This document shows, piece after piece, positions 21 through 8,827 of a stretch of DNA of 64,000 bases. The DNA comes from Chloroherpetonaceae bacterium (lineage in GTDB: Bacteria; Bacteroidota; Chlorobiia; Chlorobiales; Thermochlorobacteraceae), in the NCBI GenBank assembly GCA_046719715.1, contig JBDNCJ010000006.1:8492-72491 (forward strand), read 5' to 3'. Below the pieces are notes generated by a model that was given only the letters and a program-made list of their open reading frames with translations, searched no databases and was not told where the DNA came from. A program made the translations under genes and the position numbers. Every line of letters begins with the position of its first letter. Positions within the stretch are counted from its first letter, which is position 1.

Positions 21-1397
21 TTATCCGCCTGAAAATCCGCCGCTTCGCCCCCATGAGCCGGAACGGCTTGAACTTCGCGTGCCGAGCGAGCGCGAGCCTG
101 TGCGGCTGGTGTTGGTTGAAACGCGCCCGAACCCGCTTGGTTTGGTTTTGCCAACGCCGGCTAATCCGCCCGTTGTGCGCGAGGCAAAGGAGGTCGGACG
201 TCGGACGGGCTGGTAGGTCGGTCTTGAAATTCTCGATGGTACGCGGCTTCCATAGTAGCCGTAATTGAATGCCGGATAGAAAAACGGCGAGGGCATAAAC
301 ATCGGAAATGCCCAGAAAAACCAAGGAAAGAAAAATGGACTTCCACCGTAGTGATAGATGTTCGTTACTTGCCCGCTCGGTGTGGTTTCGGTGGTCGGCA
401 CTTTTTTGGCTTGTTCAATTTCTTCGGGCTTGGCGTCAGGCGTGACGGCGGCAGTAATCGGCACGGTCGGTTTGAAGTTTGTTGCCGCAAGCATCGTTAC
501 GGGCATGCCTTTTTCTTTGAAGGTTGCGAAGTCGTCATTCAAGTCGTCGAGTTCTGTCGATTGCGATTCAGACGGCGACAGATACATCACACTTTTAATG
601 CCAAGCGATTGCAACTTATCGGCGGTTGGAATTTTCGCCACGTAGCGATTATCAAATTCTCTCTCACTGTCTTGCGGCGCGGTCAGGCGTCGGTTGTCCA
701 AGAGCATCACGGTTGCGGCTTTATCGCTCCGCTTTTCTTTTTTGGATTCAACTTCGGCGGCGTAATAGACCAGCGCGCCTAAAACTTCGTGCGACTTCAC
801 CGTGCCTTTCGGGTGCGGATAGTTATCAAATCCAAGCACCACGTCCGCCACTTCACTCATTGCCGCCGCAAATGCGACCGACTCCTTGCCGTCTAAATCG
901 GCGATGAGCAAAATCGTTTCGGGGTTGTTGCTCCGCTTGATGAGTTCGCGCATGCCTAATCCGCGCGAATAGGCTTCTTTCATTTCAGGCGTGCAAATGG
1001 GCTTGATTTGCGATTTGAGCGACGGTTGAGAGAGCGATTGCACCAGCGTTGCTACAACGAATGGATTCCACTCGCTTCGCTTCGGCGCATATGCTTTGAG
1101 AAGTTCAGTTGAATCCAAATACGTCGACCACGACAGCGAGCCTTTGCTATCGAGCCCCGTTACATCGGGCAGTGAAATCGTATTAGATTCCGCGCCAACG
1201 CTCCACCCTTCCCTTTTTTGAAGTTCAAGCGCATCGTTTTCCTCTACGACGCCGTCATCATTGTCGCACCCTTGCATAATGCCTGACACGGAAAGCAAAG
1301 CGGCAAGCGTGCCGAGTTTCGCCAAGCGCAGATTGGCTTCGCGTCGCGTGATGGATTCTTCCCACCACGAAGATGGTTGCTTTGTGTTGTCGCTCAT
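21..1397 (-). CDS. hypothetical exported lipoprotein-like protein with aromatic/Pro-rich and Arg/Ser/Gly-rich C-terminal tail
   Basis: 458-aa ORF. The N-terminus RREANLRLAKLGTLAALLSVSGIMQGC looks like a Tat/lipoprotein signal with a lipobox Cys. No family recognised. It starts 13 nt downstream of the ATP-grasp ligase gene on the same strand. Confidence 0.55.
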   Translation of the reverse strand: MSDNTKQPSSWWEESITRREANLRLAKLGTLAALLSVSGIMQGCDNDDGVVEENDALELQKREGWSVGAESNTISLPDVTGLDSKGSLSWSTYLDSTELLKAYAPKRSEWNPFVVATLVQSLSQPSLKSQIKPICTPEMKEAYSRGLGMRELIKRSNNPETILLIADLDGKESVAFAAAMSEVADVVLGFDNYPHPKGTVKSHEVLGALVYYAAEVESKKEKRSDKAATVMLLDNRRLTAPQDSEREFDNRYVAKIPTADKLQSLGIKSVMYLSPSESQSTELDDLNDDFATFKEKGMPVTMLAATNFKPTVPITAAVTPDAKPEEIEQAKKVPTTETTPSGQVTNIYHYGGSPFFFPWFFWAFPMFMPSPFFYPAFNYGYYGSRVPSRISRPTYQPVRRPTSFASRTTGGLAGVGKTKPSGFGRVSTNTSRTGSRSLGTRSSSRSGSWGRSGGFSGG

Positions 1398-1410
1398 GGC
1401 TTTACTGAAA

Positions 1411-2655
1411 TTAGCGTTTCAAAAATGTTGCGGCGCATTGCGCGTTGTAATCGGTCGCTCGTTTGGCAACGCGCGTGAAAATTCCCGATGCGCGTCCTCC
1501 AACAAGATAAATCCCGAAGTTTGTATTTCTGTCGTCTTTAATCGCGTCGAAATAGCGTTGCACAATCCATCGGTTCGGATTTGCTTTTTGAAGCGAGGCG
1601 TTCCAGATGTCTTCCGAGACGAGATTTCCAATAATGACTTCATCGCCCTCGCACCCGTAATCGGATTTGAGCACCCAATCGTTTTTTTCGAGAGATGCCT
1701 TGTCTAACACATCGGAAATGCACAGGGTTTCGGGGATATACGCACGAATGGCATTTTGGTTTTCAGGGCTAAACTTCGCGAGATATTTCCACAAAAATGC
1801 CATTGAGAGCTTGTTTTGTGTAAGCACCGCACCCAGCGGATTGATGAGCGCGATTTGTTTGGATTGCTCGGCTTCAATGAGCCAGAAAAGTTCTGTTGCC
1901 AACGGCTCGCTGTCTTCAAACGCTTCGCCGTCGAGCCACGCGGATTCACGCTCGCCCCACCAATCGGTTTTGTAATGGCGATAGAGGATATCGATTTCAC
2001 TGCCGAAGAGCGTCAGTTTGCCTTGTGAGTTTTTTCCCAAATTTCTCGGTGAGCCTAAGACGACTTTCATGCCGCGCGATTCAAACCAGCGTCGATACAG
2101 TTCAATCATCGATAAATCTTCGGGCAAATCGGTTGGATAAACAATCCCGAGCGTCGGCGTTTGTTTGACTTCGCGAACCGTTTTTTGATAGTATTGCAAA
2201 ACGGCTTGGCAAAACGCCTTCTCAAACTGTTCGTTTGGATTCAGTAAGTTTTCTTGTTGGAGTTGTTGATTAAACAGGATTTGATTGAGCAGAACGGCTT
2301 CGGCTTCGCCGCTGGGCGTATCGCTATTCATTTCGCAGATTTGGATTCGCCCATCGTTGGTCAGGAACACATCGAGCCGAGCAATCGCGTGCCACGCGCC
2401 GCCAGAGGCAAGCCACATGAGTTTTTGAAACGGCGTGAGGTAAAAAAAATCGTCCAAGTAAGTCGGGTTATTCCAGACGATTTGGGCGAGTTCGTTGTAG
2501 GCATTTCCGATGGATTCAGCGGCTCGGCACATCGCGCTGTAAGTTTCTTGGGAGATGATGACGGGGTCGGTTTGGAATCGTTCTGCGCCGTTGAGCCATG
2601 CGTCGGAGATGATGCCGGTTTTGAGGAGCGCGTCAGCAAGTTCGCTGTAAGTCAT
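1411..2655 (-). CDS. glutathionylspermidine-synthetase-like ATP-grasp amidoligase (YgiC/YjfC family)
   Basis: 414-aa ORF alignable by eye to E. coli YgiC/YjfC blocks: ARLDVFLTNDGRIQICEMNSDTPSG, NPLGAVLTQNKLSMAFLW, WVLKSDYGCEGDEVIIG, WIVQRYF..GIYLVGGRASGIFTR. Its ATG overlaps the stop of the upstream kinase gene (ATGA at 2652-2655). Confidence 0.85.
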   Translation of the reverse strand: MTYSELADALLKTGIISDAWLNGAERFQTDPVIISQETYSAMCRAAESIGNAYNELAQIVWNNPTYLDDFFYLTPFQKLMWLASGGAWHAIARLDVFLTNDGRIQICEMNSDTPSGEAEAVLLNQILFNQQLQQENLLNPNEQFEKAFCQAVLQYYQKTVREVKQTPTLGIVYPTDLPEDLSMIELYRRWFESRGMKVVLGSPRNLGKNSQGKLTLFGSEIDILYRHYKTDWWGERESAWLDGEAFEDSEPLATELFWLIEAEQSKQIALINPLGAVLTQNKLSMAFLWKYLAKFSPENQNAIRAYIPETLCISDVLDKASLEKNDWVLKSDYGCEGDEVIIGNLVSEDIWNASLQKANPNRWIVQRYFDAIKDDRNTNFGIYLVGGRASGIFTRVAKRATDYNAQCAATFLKR

Positions 2656-4697
2656 GGCGCGTTTGCGTGAGTTCGAATTGGAAGTTCAACGCAGAATGTT
2701 GCGCCCTTTCCCTTGCCTTCGGATTCCGCCCAGACTGTTCCGCCGTGCAGGTCGACGATTTTCTTGACGATGAAAAGCCCCAAGCCTGTTGAAGTTTCTT
2801 CGTCCGTCGGTCTTGCCGAGAGGCGTTGAAAGCGTCCGAAGAGTTTCGTCATGTCCGTTTTAGACAGCCCTTGCCCTTCATCTTTGACCGTGATTCTGAC
2901 GACTTCCGAGACGTCTTCTACCAAATCCGTCGCTTGTCGATCATGGTTTGATTTTATCGGCAGTTTTTTCATGGATAATCGAATCGTTTTTTCTCGCGGG
3001 CTGTATTTGACGGCGTTGCTAATTAAGTTTTCAAACACTTCGCGAATTCGGCTCCCATCAAGCATGAGCTCGATTTCTTCGGTATGCTCAATCAGGAGCG
3101 TTTGCGATTTTTTCTTTGCAATGAATTGATTTTCATAAACGACGCTTTCTAAAATTTTATCAACGCGAGCCAATCTAAAATTGAGGGTTATTTCCCCAAT
3201 ATCGAACTCATTGCTTCTGAGCATTTCGTTAATGAGAGAGAGCATTCGATTTGCCGCGCTCTCGACGTGGGTGGCGTAGTCGTAGATGTTCAGAATGTCG
3301 GATTGAGGCGTTTCTTTAATGACGGCGGAAAAGCCGATGATGCTTTGAAGGGGGCTTTTAAGGTCGTGCGCGGCGATAGAAAGCAGTTGCGTTTTAATCT
3401 GATTGGCTTCGATGGCGAGTTTTCGTTGATTCTCGGCTTCCGACAAGGCTTTTTCAAGTTCAATACTGCGTTCCTTTTCTCGCTCGGCTTCTCGGCGCGC
3501 TTGTTCGGTTTCATACATCGCTTGCATTTCGCGAAGTTTTTTGGCTTGCACTTCGCTGAAACGCTCCCGCTCAACTTCTTGGTAACGCTCGTAGCAGTGG
3601 GTCGCTTTCTCGAAAAGTTTTCTCGACTTATACAGTTTCGCAAGCGCGATGAGTAAATCCGCCGTCTCCTGTGTCGCTTTTTGAGATTCCGCTAATTCAA
3701 GCCCTTTGAGAAGATGTGATTCGGCTTTTTCAGGCTCGCCTAAATCGTGGTAGCACAGCCCAATCACGTTGTGCGAGATTATGACACCTTGTATGTGGTT
3801 GATTTTCTCGCGCAGTTCCAAACATTCCAACTGCCTTTGGAGCGATTCTTCATGTCGCTCCAAGCCCGACAAAGCAGAGGCGATGTTTCCAAGAATTTGA
3901 GCACGCACTAACAAATCAGGCGAATCTTGCAAAGCATCTTTGGCATGTTCAAAACGGCGAAGCGCCTCGTCAAATTTTTTTTGCCGATAAAAGATATTTC
4001 CAATGTTCATCAAGGTGTGGGCGAGGCTTGCCAGGGGCGCACCGCTCTTTTGTTTTAAGGTCAGGCTTTGTTCGTAGTAGTCGCATGCTTTTTCCAAATC
4101 ATCGATGACGTAATAAACGTTTCCAATGTTCATGAGTGTCATGGCGATTTCATGTTCGTTGCCGAGTTTTTCTTTGAGGGAAAGGCTTTTTTGATAAACG
4201 TCGAGGGCTTTATCCAATTCGGAGAGTTTGAAATACGCATTGCCGATGTTGTGCAGCGACGTTGCGATTGCCATTGTGTTGTCAAGCGTTTCAGCAAGTT
4301 TAAGCCGCTCGTGATGAAGGCGGAGTGCGTCGGTGTAATTGCTGATGTTCCAATTCGCATTTCCAAGCGCGCCCAAAATTTTCAACAAGAGCGGCTTATC
4401 GCCGATTTCCGTTGCGAGTTCTTTTGCGTCGGTGAGGTATTGGATTGCTTTCGTCGAGTTGGAGACTTTCAGTTCTGCCATGCCGAGCATAGCAAGCGCA
4501 AACGCCGTTTGTCCTTTTTGAAATAATTTTAGTTCAGATTGAGCAAGCAGGTTCAAAGCGCGTTCGGCAAGCGTGCGTGTGCGCTCTGGCTCGCGCTCTA
4601 TCAAGGCTTCGGCAAGTTTGTTTAAGGCGGTAATTTGTTCGTCTCTTTCCTTTGCCGATTGCGCTTTTATCTCCAACTCGTCAATCGTCTCGGTCAT
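2652..4697 (-). CDS. cytoplasmic TPR-repeat sensor histidine kinase
   Basis: 681 aa. The N-terminal ~380 aa carry recurrent TPR-like units (..NIGNAYFKL.., ..NIGNVYYVI.., ..NIGNIFYRQ..), followed by a coiled-coil linker. H-box AAHDLKSPLQSI. ATPase boxes NLISNAVKYSP, DEGQGLS and GLGLFIVKKIVDLHGG. No TM segment seen. Confidence 0.9.
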   Translation of the reverse strand: MTETIDELEIKAQSAKERDEQITALNKLAEALIEREPERTRTLAERALNLLAQSELKLFQKGQTAFALAMLGMAELKVSNSTKAIQYLTDAKELATEIGDKPLLLKILGALGNANWNISNYTDALRLHHERLKLAETLDNTMAIATSLHNIGNAYFKLSELDKALDVYQKSLSLKEKLGNEHEIAMTLMNIGNVYYVIDDLEKACDYYEQSLTLKQKSGAPLASLAHTLMNIGNIFYRQKKFDEALRRFEHAKDALQDSPDLLVRAQILGNIASALSGLERHEESLQRQLECLELREKINHIQGVIISHNVIGLCYHDLGEPEKAESHLLKGLELAESQKATQETADLLIALAKLYKSRKLFEKATHCYERYQEVERERFSEVQAKKLREMQAMYETEQARREAEREKERSIELEKALSEAENQRKLAIEANQIKTQLLSIAAHDLKSPLQSIIGFSAVIKETPQSDILNIYDYATHVESAANRMLSLINEMLRSNEFDIGEITLNFRLARVDKILESVVYENQFIAKKKSQTLLIEHTEEIELMLDGSRIREVFENLISNAVKYSPREKTIRLSMKKLPIKSNHDRQATDLVEDVSEVVRITVKDEGQGLSKTDMTKLFGRFQRLSARPTDEETSTGLGLFIVKKIVDLHGGTVWAESEGKGKGATFCVELPIRTHANAP

Positions 4698-4704
4698 CTC
4701 TTGC

Positions 4705-5553
4705 TTAAGAAAGTTCCGTTACCAAAATCGCCGTCGCAATATACGCAGTTGCTTCAATGACGCTGACGCCGACGTTGCGGTCTTTGGAAACTTCCTCGTC
4801 CAATTTGCCGCCGTAGGGCGCAAAGCCGCCGCCGAGCAAAACGCCCTGCACCAAAAATTGCCGAATCGGATAAAACGACAGCACAACCAACAACGATTTT
4901 CCAAAACCGATGAAACTGGTTTGATAGTCAATGAAGTCGCCGCGCAAGCCGCTTCCGACGGCAATGCCGATACCCACCATCACGCCTGCGTAGCTAATCG
5001 CCGCCGCAATGTTGCCGCCGATGAACTCTTGCGTGTCGTTGTAGTTCGTCAGCATCCGATACAAGCGTGCAATCGCAATGAGCGCAAGTTGCCCGACCAA
5101 AAAGAAAACCACGCTGGTCAGCACTGTTCCGCCTTTGGCATCGCCTGAAATCGTGCCCGCAATCACAAGCCCTGTGGCGATGAATCGTCCCGCCGCAACA
5201 ATCCCCACCGCGACATTTCGTTTTTCAATTTCTTCGAGATAATCCACCGCATGAAAGAGTTTGAACCCGAAAAGCGAAATGAACGCGAGAAAGAGCACGC
5301 CGCCCGTGCCGTAGGCTAAGGCAATGAGTCCATCTTGCACCATGTCGCCGCTTCCTTCGCCGCGCATAATAGCCGTTGTAATCAGCACCACGCCGAAAAC
5401 GTATCCTGCAATCGCAACACCCAACGCAGGATTATCTGCTTTCAATAGCGCATCGCTTAAATGTGTCTTCATCAACAGTTGATTGACGAGACGCGCAAAG
5501 ACGACCATCAAAACCATAATGATGGCGACGAAGAGAATCGTTTGAATCGGCAT
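4705..5553 (-). CDS. polytopic membrane protein with four DUF350-like repeats (YjfL-like)
   Basis: 282 aa and very hydrophobic. It has four repeats of the DUF350-type signature: ADNPALGVAIAGY, KRNVAVGIVAAGR, GGNIAAAISYAG, KDRNVGVSVIEA. Confidence 0.7.
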   Translation of the reverse strand: MPIQTILFVAIIMVLMVVFARLVNQLLMKTHLSDALLKADNPALGVAIAGYVFGVVLITTAIMRGEGSGDMVQDGLIALAYGTGGVLFLAFISLFGFKLFHAVDYLEEIEKRNVAVGIVAAGRFIATGLVIAGTISGDAKGGTVLTSVVFFLVGQLALIAIARLYRMLTNYNDTQEFIGGNIAAAISYAGVMVGIGIAVGSGLRGDFIDYQTSFIGFGKSLLVVLSFYPIRQFLVQGVLLGGGFAPYGGKLDEEVSKDRNVGVSVIEATAYIATAILVTELS

Positions 5554-5570: not shown

Positions 5571-5997
5571 TTAGTTGTTTGACTTACTTTCAGTTTGCCC
5601 TTGCTCCAAAAGCCAAGCGGCGAATTTTTCAAAATCGCTTAGTCTTGTCTCTATGATTTTTCTGACGACTTTAAGATTGAGCGATGTATAATCATGGACG
5701 GCAATGTTTCTGAATCCAACCATTTTTTGCAGTTGCTCACCTAAATTTTTATCGAGAAGCCCCGCATTTATCAGCGTTTCAAATGCTTCTCGACTGGTCT
5801 GGGGAACACCCAATCGCTTGACTTTGATTAGATGATTTGCCGCGTCAATCGCCGCTTCCGATGCGCGTTGCAAATTCAAAATCACGGAATCTTGCTTTGT
5901 AAAATTCGTCTCGAACTCGCTTTCATAGCCCACATATTCCTCTCGCACTCTTGCGGCGCACCGTTCAATGACGTTCGCTTTTCCGACTAAAATTTCA

Positions 5998-6014
<17 letters not shown>
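5571..6014 (-). CDS. hepT: HepT-type HEPN (DUF86) toxin of a type VII MNT/HEPN module
   Basis: Canonical Rx4HxY motif FRNIAVHDY. The ORF-track start (6149) lies inside mntA. I place the start at the in-frame GTG at 6014 (VEKFIDEIL..), which gives a 17-nt overlap with the mntA stop. Confidence 0.8.

Positions 6015-8827
<2,813 letters not shown>

Follow-up and report, generated by a model that had tools for sequence, protein, structure and literature searches.

A GspS-like ATP-grasp ligase and its neighbors form the upstream half of a PspA-type envelope-stress array in Chloroherpetonaceae

What do four tightly packed genes have in common when they encode a multi-unit DUF350 membrane protein, a TPR histidine kinase, an ATP-grasp ligase and an exported protein with a basic tail? 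The genes lie at one edge of the 64,000-nucleotide stretch of Chloroherpetonaceae DNA analyzed here (the window), where a preliminary description had placed them: all four are on the minus strand and encode proteins of 282 (4705–5553), 681 (2652–4697), 414 (1411–2655) and 458 residues (21–1397), respectively. Direct reading of the sequence confirmed their spacing, with seven nucleotides (gcaagag) between the DUF350 stop codon (TAA) and the kinase ATG, an ATGA overlap between the kinase and ligase genes, and 13 nucleotides between the ligase TAA and the ATG of the tail-protein gene.

These four genes had been taken for the entire array. In a longer contig (L001), the array runs past the window edge into genes for a 209-residue acidic DUF1517-like protein (p209), a J-domain protein, a CesT_Tir_1 chaperone and PspA (Pfam E-values of 2.7e-5, 4.2e-14, 5.6e-46 and 1.1e-39 for DUF1517, DnaJ, CesT_Tir_1 and PspA_IM30, respectively). 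The eight genes are encoded on one strand in the order DUF350, TPR histidine kinase, ligase, tail protein, p209, J-domain protein, CesT_Tir_1 and PspA, with gaps of at most 38 nucleotides from DUF350 through PspA, and a strong terminator with a 12-bp stem follows 3′ of pspA (L001:14954–14984). With these four additional genes, the array is a PspA-type envelope-stress cluster of eight genes in Chloroherpetonaceae (Chlorobiota), of which the window genes make up the upstream half, and their initial designation as an envelope-associated module is a fair one. A HepT/MntA toxin–antitoxin pair is located directly upstream of the array.

The ligase (1411–2655) is a GspS/YjfC/YgiC-like ATP-grasp carboxylate-amine ligase, predicted to be cytoplasmic and lacking an amidase domain. 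Its membership of the GSP-synthetase fold family, proposed at the outset, is supported by Pfam (GSP_synth, 70.5 bits against a cut-off of 29.3) and by Foldseek searches with its AF2 model (pLDDT 90.5), which retrieved GspS (2io8, E = 6.9e-19), YjfC (7uk6, E = 2.1e-18, TM 0.73/0.78) and YgiC (7uk8 and 7uka). Two invariant motifs, R93-x-D95 and E108-x-N110-x-D112-T113, correspond in the alignment to GRMD...EYNADS of GspS, and the catalytic motifs are intact. Other invariant motifs, such as RHYKTDWWGER, are specific to the family. Sequence identity to GspS, YjfC and YgiC is 14–17%, and comparison with YjfC yielded a BLASTP E-value of 0.017 and an hhalign probability of 4.9%, so that the E. coli substrate cannot be transferred to this ligase.

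Automatic annotation at NCBI and JGI names the protein glutathionylspermidine synthetase. That it is a genuine enzyme of this kind, with incidental neighbors, agrees with the Pfam match and with GspS being the best fold match, but is very improbable given the missing amidase domain, the 15–17% identity to GspS and the fact that it neighbors the tail protein and p209 across phyla. Nor is glutathione synthesis known in green sulfur bacteria. The amidase-less E. coli YgiC is reported to have no Gsp synthetase activity (Sui et al. 2012). RefSeq now names YjfC and YgiC peptide–spermidine ligases (Pederick et al. 2023), and both work on free peptides in vitro (PMC11762307). The initial statement that the substrates of such ligases are unknown is therefore outdated as regards these activities and still holds for the physiological substrate (PMC11762307).

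We surveyed conservation across 81 related loci. The ligase gene immediately precedes the tail-protein gene in 32 of 69 loci, from Chlorobiota/Ignavibacteria and Acidobacteriota (two phyla); in one Blastocatellia assembly, it is not beside the tail-protein locus and a ligase with 51% identity is encoded at another site.

The first gene of the array (4705–5553) encodes a DUF350 (YjfL-type) membrane protein with eight hydrophobic segments, predicted to be transmembrane. Pfam detects it as two stretches of the current 133-position model (E = 1.9e-37), whereas a 74-residue single-unit profile matches four times (residues 3–65, 100–137, 149–204 and 251–278), so that the label of a quadruplicated DUF350 protein is correct when counted in units. 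DUF350 occurs near the ligase in 17 of 25 well-flanked ligase loci versus none of 28 well-flanked ligase-less loci; in the loci surveyed, it was found solely where the ligase is present. The linkage of DUF350, ligase and tail protein recurs well beyond the source genome, as the preliminary description had anticipated.

The last gene inside the window (21–1397) encodes an exported protein, which we refer to as the tail protein. It has 182 homologs in Chlorobiota, Kapabacteria, Ignavibacteria and Acidobacteriota, and none of 26 family members scored above noise against Pfam. The export signal (1266–1397) comprises R18 and R19, a hydrophobic stretch and Cys44. The two arginines are invariant in the 26 homologs; Cys44 forms part of an atypical lipobox (MQGC), while homologs carry a canonical L/V-x-G/S-C or, in some cases, no cysteine. 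We infer that export depends on Tat, with weak TAT-signal matches in just two of the 26 members. A globular α/β (Rossmann-like) domain follows (residues ~56–310, 468–1232), with AF2 pLDDT values of 84–97 over residues 71–300 and the invariant polar motifs DLxGxES, FDNxPHPxG, FDNRY and ELDDLNDDF. A Foldseek search of the PDB with this domain returned nothing significant (best E = 0.03, TM <0.2).

The C-terminal part of the tail protein begins with an aromatic and proline-rich hydrophobic segment (residues 348–382, YHYGGSPFFFPWFFWAFPMFMPSPFFYPAF..., 252–356) that includes the invariant Y350-G351-G352. It scores −19.4 kcal/mol on the Wimley–White octanol scale (family range −1.6 to −19), is not called by Kyte–Doolittle analysis and, in many members, is short with a high His and Tyr content. 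We consider it a possible second membrane segment. The remainder (residues 383–458, 24–251) is a basic Gly/Ser/Arg tail, predicted to be disordered by AF2: residues 376–458 (83 residues) contain 14 K/R and no D/E, compared with 12–24 K/R and 0–3 D/E across the family. The motifs RRPTxF, KPSGFGR and RSGS[FYW]GR are conserved, and the protein ends in GG, SS or SG. These C-terminal residues are the same with or without an adjacent ligase, which about half of the loci lack, so that the tail has a role independent of the ligase. The likeness of the tail to DUF1190 tails (YjfM/YgiB) is purely compositional and did not exceed that of composition-matched shuffles.

The acidic p209 (pI 4.4) is encoded just past the window edge. 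Its match to Pfam DUF1517 (24.7 bits against a cut-off of 23.3) is partial, covering profile positions 7–130 of 184, and kinship with YjfK/DUF2491 was not detectable. An exhaustive profile search found 222 representatives, which are mostly stand-alone proteins of 180–215 residues among the 150 listed, and some homologs have an N-terminal TM helix. The p209 gene is downstream of the tail-protein gene in 64 of 72 loci; p209, and not the ligase (32 of 69), is thus the partner that the tail protein keeps most often. Ligase, tail protein and p209, in that order, form the evolutionarily stable core, whereas the DnaJ/CesT/PspA block is adjacent solely in Chloroherpetonaceae, with PspA adjacency confined to four closely related loci. 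Gene order is kept across two phyla at 36–54% protein identity, which argues against chance packing of unrelated genes. Together with an anti-phage defense island, for which the toxin–antitoxin pair upstream and a generic PADLOC TPR match of the kinase might speak, chance is the least credible reading, and PADLOC returned no match for DUF350, ligase, tail protein, p209, DnaJ, CesT or PspA.

The TPR histidine kinase (2652–4697) behaves differently in the survey. It is predicted to be soluble, with no hydrophobic segment detected, and combines a TPR region acting as putative sensor or scaffold (residues ~70–370, 3588–4490; TPR_12, TPR_1, TPR_10 and TPR_MalT matches, E = 7.7e-38 for TPR_12), a HisKA phospho-acceptor domain (residues 435–494, 3216–3395, E = 6e-9) with the H-box AAHDLKSPL, and a HATPase_c catalytic domain (residues 547–675, 2673–3059, E = 8.6e-24). 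The TPR region also resembles that of FimS (NCBIfam), in a weak and partial match far under the cut-off. The kinase has no receiver domain of its own, and none was found within 40 kb of it: the nearest in the window lie at ~44, 49 and 57.5 kb and the 10 kb past the window edge contain none, in accordance with the initial remark that no response regulator is nearby.

We considered the earlier proposal of a single co-evolved module for signaling and modification that would comprise all four genes, with the TPR kinase sensing or controlling the ligase. Co-expression is implied by the ATGA overlap and the seven-nucleotide gap, an orthologous kinase (60% identical) occupies the same position in locus L006, beside an extra TPR-only gene, and signaling genes of other types are repeatedly found beside tail-protein loci (a HAMP kinase in L020, FHA and Ser/Thr kinase genes in Blastocatellia, and histidine kinase–response regulator pairs in L032 and L056). 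Among the 81 loci, however, the kinase is present solely in the window/L001 and L006. Loci L005 and L007, with tail proteins 89–91% identical to that of the window, have a 79-nucleotide spacer in its place, and it is absent from every other ligase-bearing locus surveyed (~30). Co-conservation of the four genes thus held in the neighborhood survey for DUF350, ligase and tail protein and failed for the kinase, which is a recent clade-specific insertion between the DUF350 and ligase genes and not a conserved part of the cluster. With no cognate response regulator found within 40 kb either, we regard a kinase-centered module as unlikely.

The reading that we favor, with a probability of about 0.55, is that of a cytoplasmic carboxylate-amine (polyamine) ligase that would cooperate with DUF350 and the tail protein at the membrane in a PspA-type array. 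The ligase would use ATP to activate a carboxylate and join it to an amine; as for YjfC and YgiC, this could attach a polyamine to a peptide or protein C-terminus, here at the inner membrane face. The best candidate target would be the Gly/Ser-ending basic tail of the neighboring tail protein, which might lie in the cytoplasm, preceded by the aromatic segment as a C-terminal membrane span, or receive the modification ahead of Tat export. DUF350 would act as the membrane partner, and p209 could bind the basic tail through charge complementarity (+14 in residues 376–458 versus pI 4.4). The J-domain protein, the CesT-like chaperone and PspA would contribute to membrane maintenance, and the orphan kinase might provide regulatory input through an unlinked response regulator.

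Alternatively, the product may be a soluble small molecule, either a polyamine amide or a short peptide–polyamine conjugate, with no protein being modified; DUF350 would move or handle it, the periplasmic α/β domain would bind it (via the acidic ELDDLNDDF motif) and PspA would respond to the membrane change. This possibility, to which we give appreciable but clearly lower weight, fits with DUF350 tracking the ligase and not the tail protein, with retention of the tail even where no ligase is adjacent, with GspS making a small molecule and YjfC and YgiC using free peptides, and with the suggestion by Ravi et al. 2024 (PMC11237479) that clusters of this sort serve to monitor polyamines or polyamine derivatives. 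It leaves unexplained why the order of ligase, tail protein and p209 is so strict over two phyla, a transporter function for DUF350 is not known, and a SpeE probe detected no polyamine-biosynthesis gene either in the window or in related loci.

The cluster kind, initially thought to be uncharacterized, has already been described: Ravi et al. reported CesT/Tir–PspA dyads with an ATP-grasp ligase, DUF350 and a lipoprotein, and also eight-TM DUF350 proteins with a lipoprotein made of a LipoSIG, a domain and a low-complexity region. The array is the Chlorobiota counterpart of these PspA/CesT, DUF350, lipoprotein and GspS-like ligase clusters, of which E. coli yjfIJKLMC is an example; reading that operon confirmed the presence of DUF350 (YjfL) and a GspS homolog (YjfC). 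Both this array and yjfIJKLMC (‘third group’ CesT/Tir–PspA operons) contain a DUF350 membrane protein, an amidase-less GspS-like ligase and, adjoining it, a signal/lipobox protein whose C-terminus is low in complexity and rich in Gly, Ser and Arg, as well as a small acidic cytoplasmic protein and a CesT/Tir-fold chaperone, and their PspA proteins (YjfJ in E. coli) are 25% identical (E = 3e-4). Gene order is inverted here, DUF350 has eight TM segments (four units) instead of four, the lipoprotein does not belong to DUF1190, the match of the acidic protein is to DUF1517 and not DUF2491, and that of the chaperone is to CesT_Tir_1 (PF22550) and not DUF2170; the J-domain protein and TPR histidine kinase are extra, and a K+ channel is absent.

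The ligase shares its fold with YjfC/YgiC (7uk6, 7uk8, 7uka) and the GspS synthetase domain (2io7–2iob; Foldseek E-values of 1e-17 to 1e-19, TM ~0.7) and has in common with them the R-x-D ... E-x-N-x-D-[ST] motif, but at 14–17% identity there is no significant full-length pairwise or profile match. Like YjfC and YgiC, it lacks the amidase domain, and its gene adjoins that of a lipoprotein whose tail is rich in Gly and Ser (yjfM–yjfC and ygiB–ygiC in E. coli). The partial DUF1517 match and the N-terminal TM helix of some p209 homologs recall FLAP1 of cyanobacteria and chloroplasts. The ‘second group’ operon (Shewanella SO_3765 type: LipoSIG+Ctha_1186+Low-comp, eight-TM YjfL, 7TM-spermidine synthase, CesT, PspA, DUF4178) also couples an eight-TM DUF350 protein to a CesT–PspA-linked lipoprotein with a signal, a globular domain and a low-complexity tail; in the present array, DUF4178 and RHH are absent and a GspS-like ligase replaces the membrane-bound spermidine-synthase-like enzyme. 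As the Ctha_1186 domain is named after a gene of Chloroherpeton, which belongs to the same bacterial family as the window, it may represent the same lipoprotein family as the tail protein.

The array occupies the minus strand and comprises, from high to low coordinates, a DUF350 gene (4705–5553; 282 aa, Pfam DUF350 E-value 1.9e-37), a TPR histidine kinase gene (2652–4697; 681 aa, Pfam TPR_12, HisKA and HATPase_c), a ligase gene (1411–2655; 414 aa, Pfam GSP_synth) and a gene for a 458-aa protein without a Pfam match (21–1397), termed here the tail protein and listed in the preliminary description as an odd lipoprotein. Read directly, the DUF350–kinase junction is TAA, 7 nt and ATG, the kinase and ligase genes overlap by ATGA, and the ligase–tail protein junction is TAA, 13 nt and ATG. 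A profile of the 74-aa single unit locates four DUF350 units in the 282-aa protein, which displays eight hydrophobic segments. The kinase carries HisKA and HATPase_c, as for a two-component-system histidine kinase, and no hydrophobic segment resembling a membrane span was found in the kinase, the ligase or the downstream proteins. No cognate response regulator lies beside the kinase: the sole receiver-domain matches in the window, at about 44.0, 48.9–49.2 and 57.5–57.9 kb, are at least 40 kb away, and L001, a longer contig carrying the same array, has none. These receiver domains are candidate distant partners of the orphan kinase. The four open reading frames, their spacing, the quadruple DUF350 protein, the soluble kinase and the lack of a nearby response regulator are therefore fully confirmed.

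Assembly GCA_046719425.1 carries the ligase sequence too, on a contig of 46.8 kb, as do two Logan contigs; names on homologues place the organism, a member of the Chloroherpetonaceae, in the phylum Chlorobiota. The array runs on past the 458-aa gene with four more same-strand genes separated by gaps of 12–38 nt. All four lie past the window edge, which cuts the array, and were read on L001; they encode an acidic 209-aa protein (p209; Pfam DUF1517 at 24.7 versus 23.3 bits, pI 4.4), a 139-aa J-domain protein (DnaJ 4.2e-14), a 138-aa CesT_Tir_1 protein (5.6e-46) and a 244-aa PspA/IM30 protein (PspA_IM30 1.1e-39). A hairpin with a 12-bp stem and a T tail lies 3′ of pspA (L001:14954–14984); apart from this hairpin, promoter and terminator scans gave counts at chance level. 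Beyond the phosphoglucomutase gene that comes after pspA, L001:16494–16865 encodes a protein of 123 aa. Its N-terminus resembles a signal sequence, its matches to Metal_resist (CpxP/Spy-like) and to RIP_P131-like models are weak, and it may be another envelope-stress protein.

On the 5′ side of the DUF350 gene, a HepT/MntA type VII toxin–antitoxin pair (window 5571–6405, minus strand; NCBIfam HepT_toxin 2.9e-45, MntA_antitoxin 1.1e-28) lies between that gene and pgi. The hepT and mntA genes overlap one another, and mntA overlaps pgi by 4 nt. HepT is listed as a 192-aa TTG open reading frame versus a shorter, 147-aa gene on the public contig, and the pair is found at the same position in the related loci L005 and L006. 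A reading of the region as a defence system was rejected, PADLOC having yielded nothing specific.

The ligase matches GSP_synth (PF03738) with 70.5 bits against a cut-off of 29.3 (E-value 2e-19), covering profile positions 85–363 of 371. Its AF2 model, built on 28 homologues, has a pLDDT of 90.5 and is matched by Foldseek to E. coli YjfC (7uk6; E-value 2.1e-18, TM 0.73/0.78), to YgiC (7uk8 and 7uka) and to the GspS synthetase domain (2io8; E-value 6.9e-19), the GspS match spanning only the synthetase part with a TM normalised to the target of about 0.5. Sequence searches are weak, with a marginal BLASTP match to YjfC (E-value 0.017; hhalign probability 4.9%), no phmmer match to PDB sequences and, for a ligase profile searched against solved structures, only a partial GspS match (E-value 0.02); the link to solved structures was settled by structure comparison. 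A tblastn search of plasmids with the ligase returned only distant GSP-synthase-family genes. Residues R93, D95, E108, N110, D112 and T113 are invariant in the 28 ligase sequences and align with GRMD...EYNADS of GspS; the GspS structure paper is said to assign this GR-x-D ... E-Y-N-A-D-S motif a role in Mg/acyl-phosphate binding. Unlike GspS proper, in which an N-terminal CHAP-type amidase is fused to the synthetase in chains of about 600 aa, the 414-aa ligase has no amidase domain, its only matches being GSP_synth/CP_ATPgrasp. The protein thus represents a subfamily of its own among the GspS-like ATP-grasp carboxylate–amine ligases and is apparently active; its substrates are not readable from sequence.

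The tail protein belongs to a family of at least 182 members with no Pfam model. In an alignment of 26 homologues, a twin arginine (R18-R19) preceding a hydrophobic stretch is invariant; TAT-signal Pfam matches are weak and confined to two of the 26 (E-values 0.009 and 0.035), and there is no NCBIfam match. The box of the window protein, I-M-Q-G-C44, is atypical relative to the lipobox [LVI][ASTVI][GAS]C, and canonical lipoboxes (VVGC, LAGC, LTSC) occur in many homologues. The lipobox cysteine ends the hydrophobic stretch in most Chlorobiota members and many Acidobacteriota members have no cysteine. An alpha/beta domain with many invariant polar residues is confidently modelled, and searching the PDB with it gave no significant fold match (best E-value 0.03, TM <0.2). 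An invariant Y-G-G leads into an aromatic and proline-rich hydrophobic segment, and the disordered tail holds conserved motifs (RRPTxF, KPSGFGR and RSGS[FYW]GR), 12–24 K/R and at most 3 D/E. It ends in GG, SS or SG (for example ...SGSWGRSGGFSGG, with SS or SG ends as variants), and this C-terminal dipeptide shows no correlation with the presence of a ligase.

This tail resembles those of the E. coli DUF1190 proteins YjfM and YgiB. We considered homology with DUF1190 on the basis of a 57-residue BLASTP match (E-value 0.007), but a tail HMM did not set YgiB and YjfM apart from shuffled sequence: out of 1000 composition-matched shuffles, 439 and 932, respectively, reached the real score. We therefore take the likeness to be confined to architecture and composition and to fall short of demonstrable homology. 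Pfam DUF1190 likewise matched neither the 458-aa protein, nor its C-terminal 159 aa (E-values up to 10), nor the 26 family members.

The acidic p209 is complementary in charge to the basic tail, and RRxFF is conserved at its N-terminus. Some lineages have a p209 that begins with a transmembrane helix and then basic residues, which places the p209 domain in the cytoplasm. An equivalence with YjfK (DUF2491) was rejected since p209 matches DUF1517 and not DUF2491, and hhalign (0.4% probability) aligned only a 14-residue N-terminal motif. In a comparison of L001:12657–12700 and L004:6303–6350, the p209 N-terminus (MNRRNFFSNLFGKRR) resembles the start of E. coli YjfK (..GFFQRLFGKDN) over these 14 residues (E-value 0.15, not significant); the two stretches each open the small acidic protein of the cluster concerned. 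No fusion of p209/DUF1517 to a Gly-rich tail was present among the matches listed by word-index and exhaustive profile searches or in eight sequences inspected. In one library sequence, P0459 (406 aa), a single open reading frame contains the C-terminal half of a tail protein, a garbled Arg-rich linker and a p209 sequence; this is probably no true fusion but the result of a frameshift across neighbouring genes of a high-GC genome.

To assess conservation of the neighbourhood, we scanned the 26-sequence alignment against one genome per GTDB species, which gave 80 loci, and analysed these by local tblastn, ORF clustering and iterative HMM searches. The p209 gene lies downstream of the tail protein gene in 64 of the 72 loci with enough flank, and a ligase gene is directly upstream in 32 of 69. 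Ligase-bearing loci occur in Chlorobiota, Ignavibacteria and Kapabacteria and in Pyrinomonadaceae and other Acidobacteriota, and wherever the ligase is adjacent the order is invariably ligase, tail protein, p209. Of the 25 ligase loci with sufficient flank, 17 have a DUF350 gene nearby, in the four-unit form or as a 74-aa single unit; none was found in the 28 well-flanked loci that lack a ligase. DUF350, ligase, tail protein and p209 are thus co-conserved, which bears out the expected linkage for three of the four window genes. It does not hold for the kinase, found across 81 loci only in the window/L001 and, at 60% identity, in L006. In L005 and L007, the tail proteins of which are 89–91% identical to that of the window, a spacer of 79 nt separates the DUF350 gene from the ligase gene, and we regard the kinase as a clade-specific insertion. 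In L006, from a Thermochlorobacteriaceae relative, this interval holds a TPR-only gene (L006:5650–6726, 358 aa) and, after it, the orthologous kinase gene; two other close relatives lack both. The DnaJ/CesT/PspA block is adjacent in only four related loci (window/L001, L005, L006 and L007); adjacency to pspA is therefore lineage-specific here, but has a parallel in the gene arrangement of Proteobacteria.

The genes upstream of the tail protein vary among lineages. In Blastocatellia, no ligase adjoins the tail protein and p209, and a conserved trio of genes stands before them, encoding a double-FHA protein, a Ser/Thr kinase that carries a fused FGE-sulfatase domain, and a secreted protein of the PEGA/CarboxypepD_reg type (seen in L034, L040, L043, L062, L065, L071 and further loci, some 4 kb upstream of the match position, 10001); Blastocatellia STL-ACI6, with a locus of this type, encodes a 51%-identical ligase elsewhere in its genome. 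In Pyrinomonadaceae-type loci (L030, L045, L047, L053 and L057), the DUF350 gene upstream of the ligase is the single 74-aa unit, preceded by genes for a TlpA-like TPR-thioredoxin, a CcdA-thioredoxin fusion, another thioredoxin-like protein and a 321-aa protein with DHH and GGGH motifs and without a Pfam match. In the Ignavibacteria locus L020 (484–4656), which has no ligase, a HAMP-HisKA-HATPase kinase is followed by the tail protein and a four-unit DUF350 protein, making it a second histidine kinase adjoining the tail protein, unrelated to the TPR kinase. The variety of signalling genes beside the tail protein (the TPR kinase here, the HAMP kinase of L020, and the FHA protein and Ser/Thr kinase of Blastocatellia) suggests that p209 and the tail protein may act together in signalling or as an adaptor pair.

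We propose that the ligase, acting at the inner membrane face, would link a carboxylate to an amine, which to judge from YjfC and YgiC is probably a polyamine, with the DUF350 protein as its putative membrane partner and the J-domain protein, the CesT-like chaperone and PspA as a presumptive membrane-maintenance arm. The best candidate substrate or docking site is the tail of the neighbouring protein, which could meet the cytoplasmic ligase in two ways: the aromatic segment may be a second membrane span, giving an N-in/C-in topology that fits the positive-inside rule, or modification may take place ahead of Tat export. In its full form, the proposal holds that the natural substrate of the ligase would be the C-terminal Gly/Ser carboxylate of the tail protein, capped with a polyamine, and that by extension YjfC and YgiC would modify YjfM and YgiB. 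Such a C-terminal 'polyamination' mark, so far undescribed, would sit on an envelope sensor that is either transmembrane or exported by Tat, and would tune binding of the basic tail to p209 and the PspA membrane-repair machinery; other lineages would use Ser/Thr phosphorylation of the same tail, which would explain the FHA and kinase neighbours in Blastocatellia. We put the probability of this full reading at roughly one in eight. Three observations speak against a protein substrate and make a small-molecule product of the ligase a serious rival: loci without an adjacent ligase conserve the tail and its C-terminal residues just as well, the aromatic segment is short and His- and Tyr-rich in many members, and DUF350 tracks the ligase, not the tail protein.

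The cluster bears on two open questions, the physiological substrate of the YjfC/YgiC class of 'peptide–spermidine ligases', which for YgiC is unknown according to a 2025 review (PMC11762307), and what polyamine-type enzymes do in PspA membrane-stress systems (PMC11237479). In both Chlorobiota and Acidobacteriota, a GspS-like ligase is kept beside an exported protein whose basic Gly/Ser/Arg tail is conserved, so that the tail peptides are testable candidate substrates for this ligase class; yjfM–yjfC and ygiB–ygiC are the E. coli analogue of the pairing, with a lipoprotein not demonstrably related. Our data also set two uncharacterised families, the tail protein and the DUF1517-like p209, as a conserved pair. 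Should the linkage be only regulatory or incidental, the array adds a further variant to an operon type already catalogued.

In E. coli K-12, the cluster yjfIJKLMC encodes YjfI (DUF2170), YjfJ (PspA family), YjfK (DUF2491), YjfL (DUF350), YjfM (DUF1190) and YjfC, so the statement in the preliminary description that a DUF350 protein and a GspS homologue share one cluster was correct; the genome also has the ygiB (DUF1190)–ygiC pair, and RefSeq names both YjfC and YgiC 'peptide--spermidine ligase', as names only. Several kinds of CesT/Tir–PspA operon have been catalogued (Ravi et al. 2024, PMC11237479). In one, a GspS-related ATP-grasp ligase occurs with DUF350, DUF2491 and a DUF1190 lipoprotein; another, the Shewanella SO_3765 type, combines an 8-TM DUF350, a 'LipoSIG+Ctha_1186+Low-comp' lipoprotein and a membrane-bound spermidine-synthase-like enzyme (PMC11237479). 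The tail protein may belong to the family of this second lipoprotein. Polyamine-type chemistry was proposed to be coupled to PspA membrane dynamics via cell-surface lipoproteins (PMC11237479). The earlier suggestion of an envelope-associated modification or signalling module stands in part, and clusters of this sort have been published before. With the yjfIJKLMC type (Ravi group 3) the present cluster shares the CesT/Tir–PspA dyad, a YjfL-family DUF350 and a GspS-related ligase. It differs in its lipoprotein, which is of another family than DUF1190 and analogous only in architecture, in its partner protein, which is DUF1517-like where E. coli has DUF2491, and in its CesT_Tir_1 chaperone, of a different subfamily from YjfI/DUF2170; relative to the published versions, it further adds a J-domain protein and a lineage-specific orphan TPR kinase.
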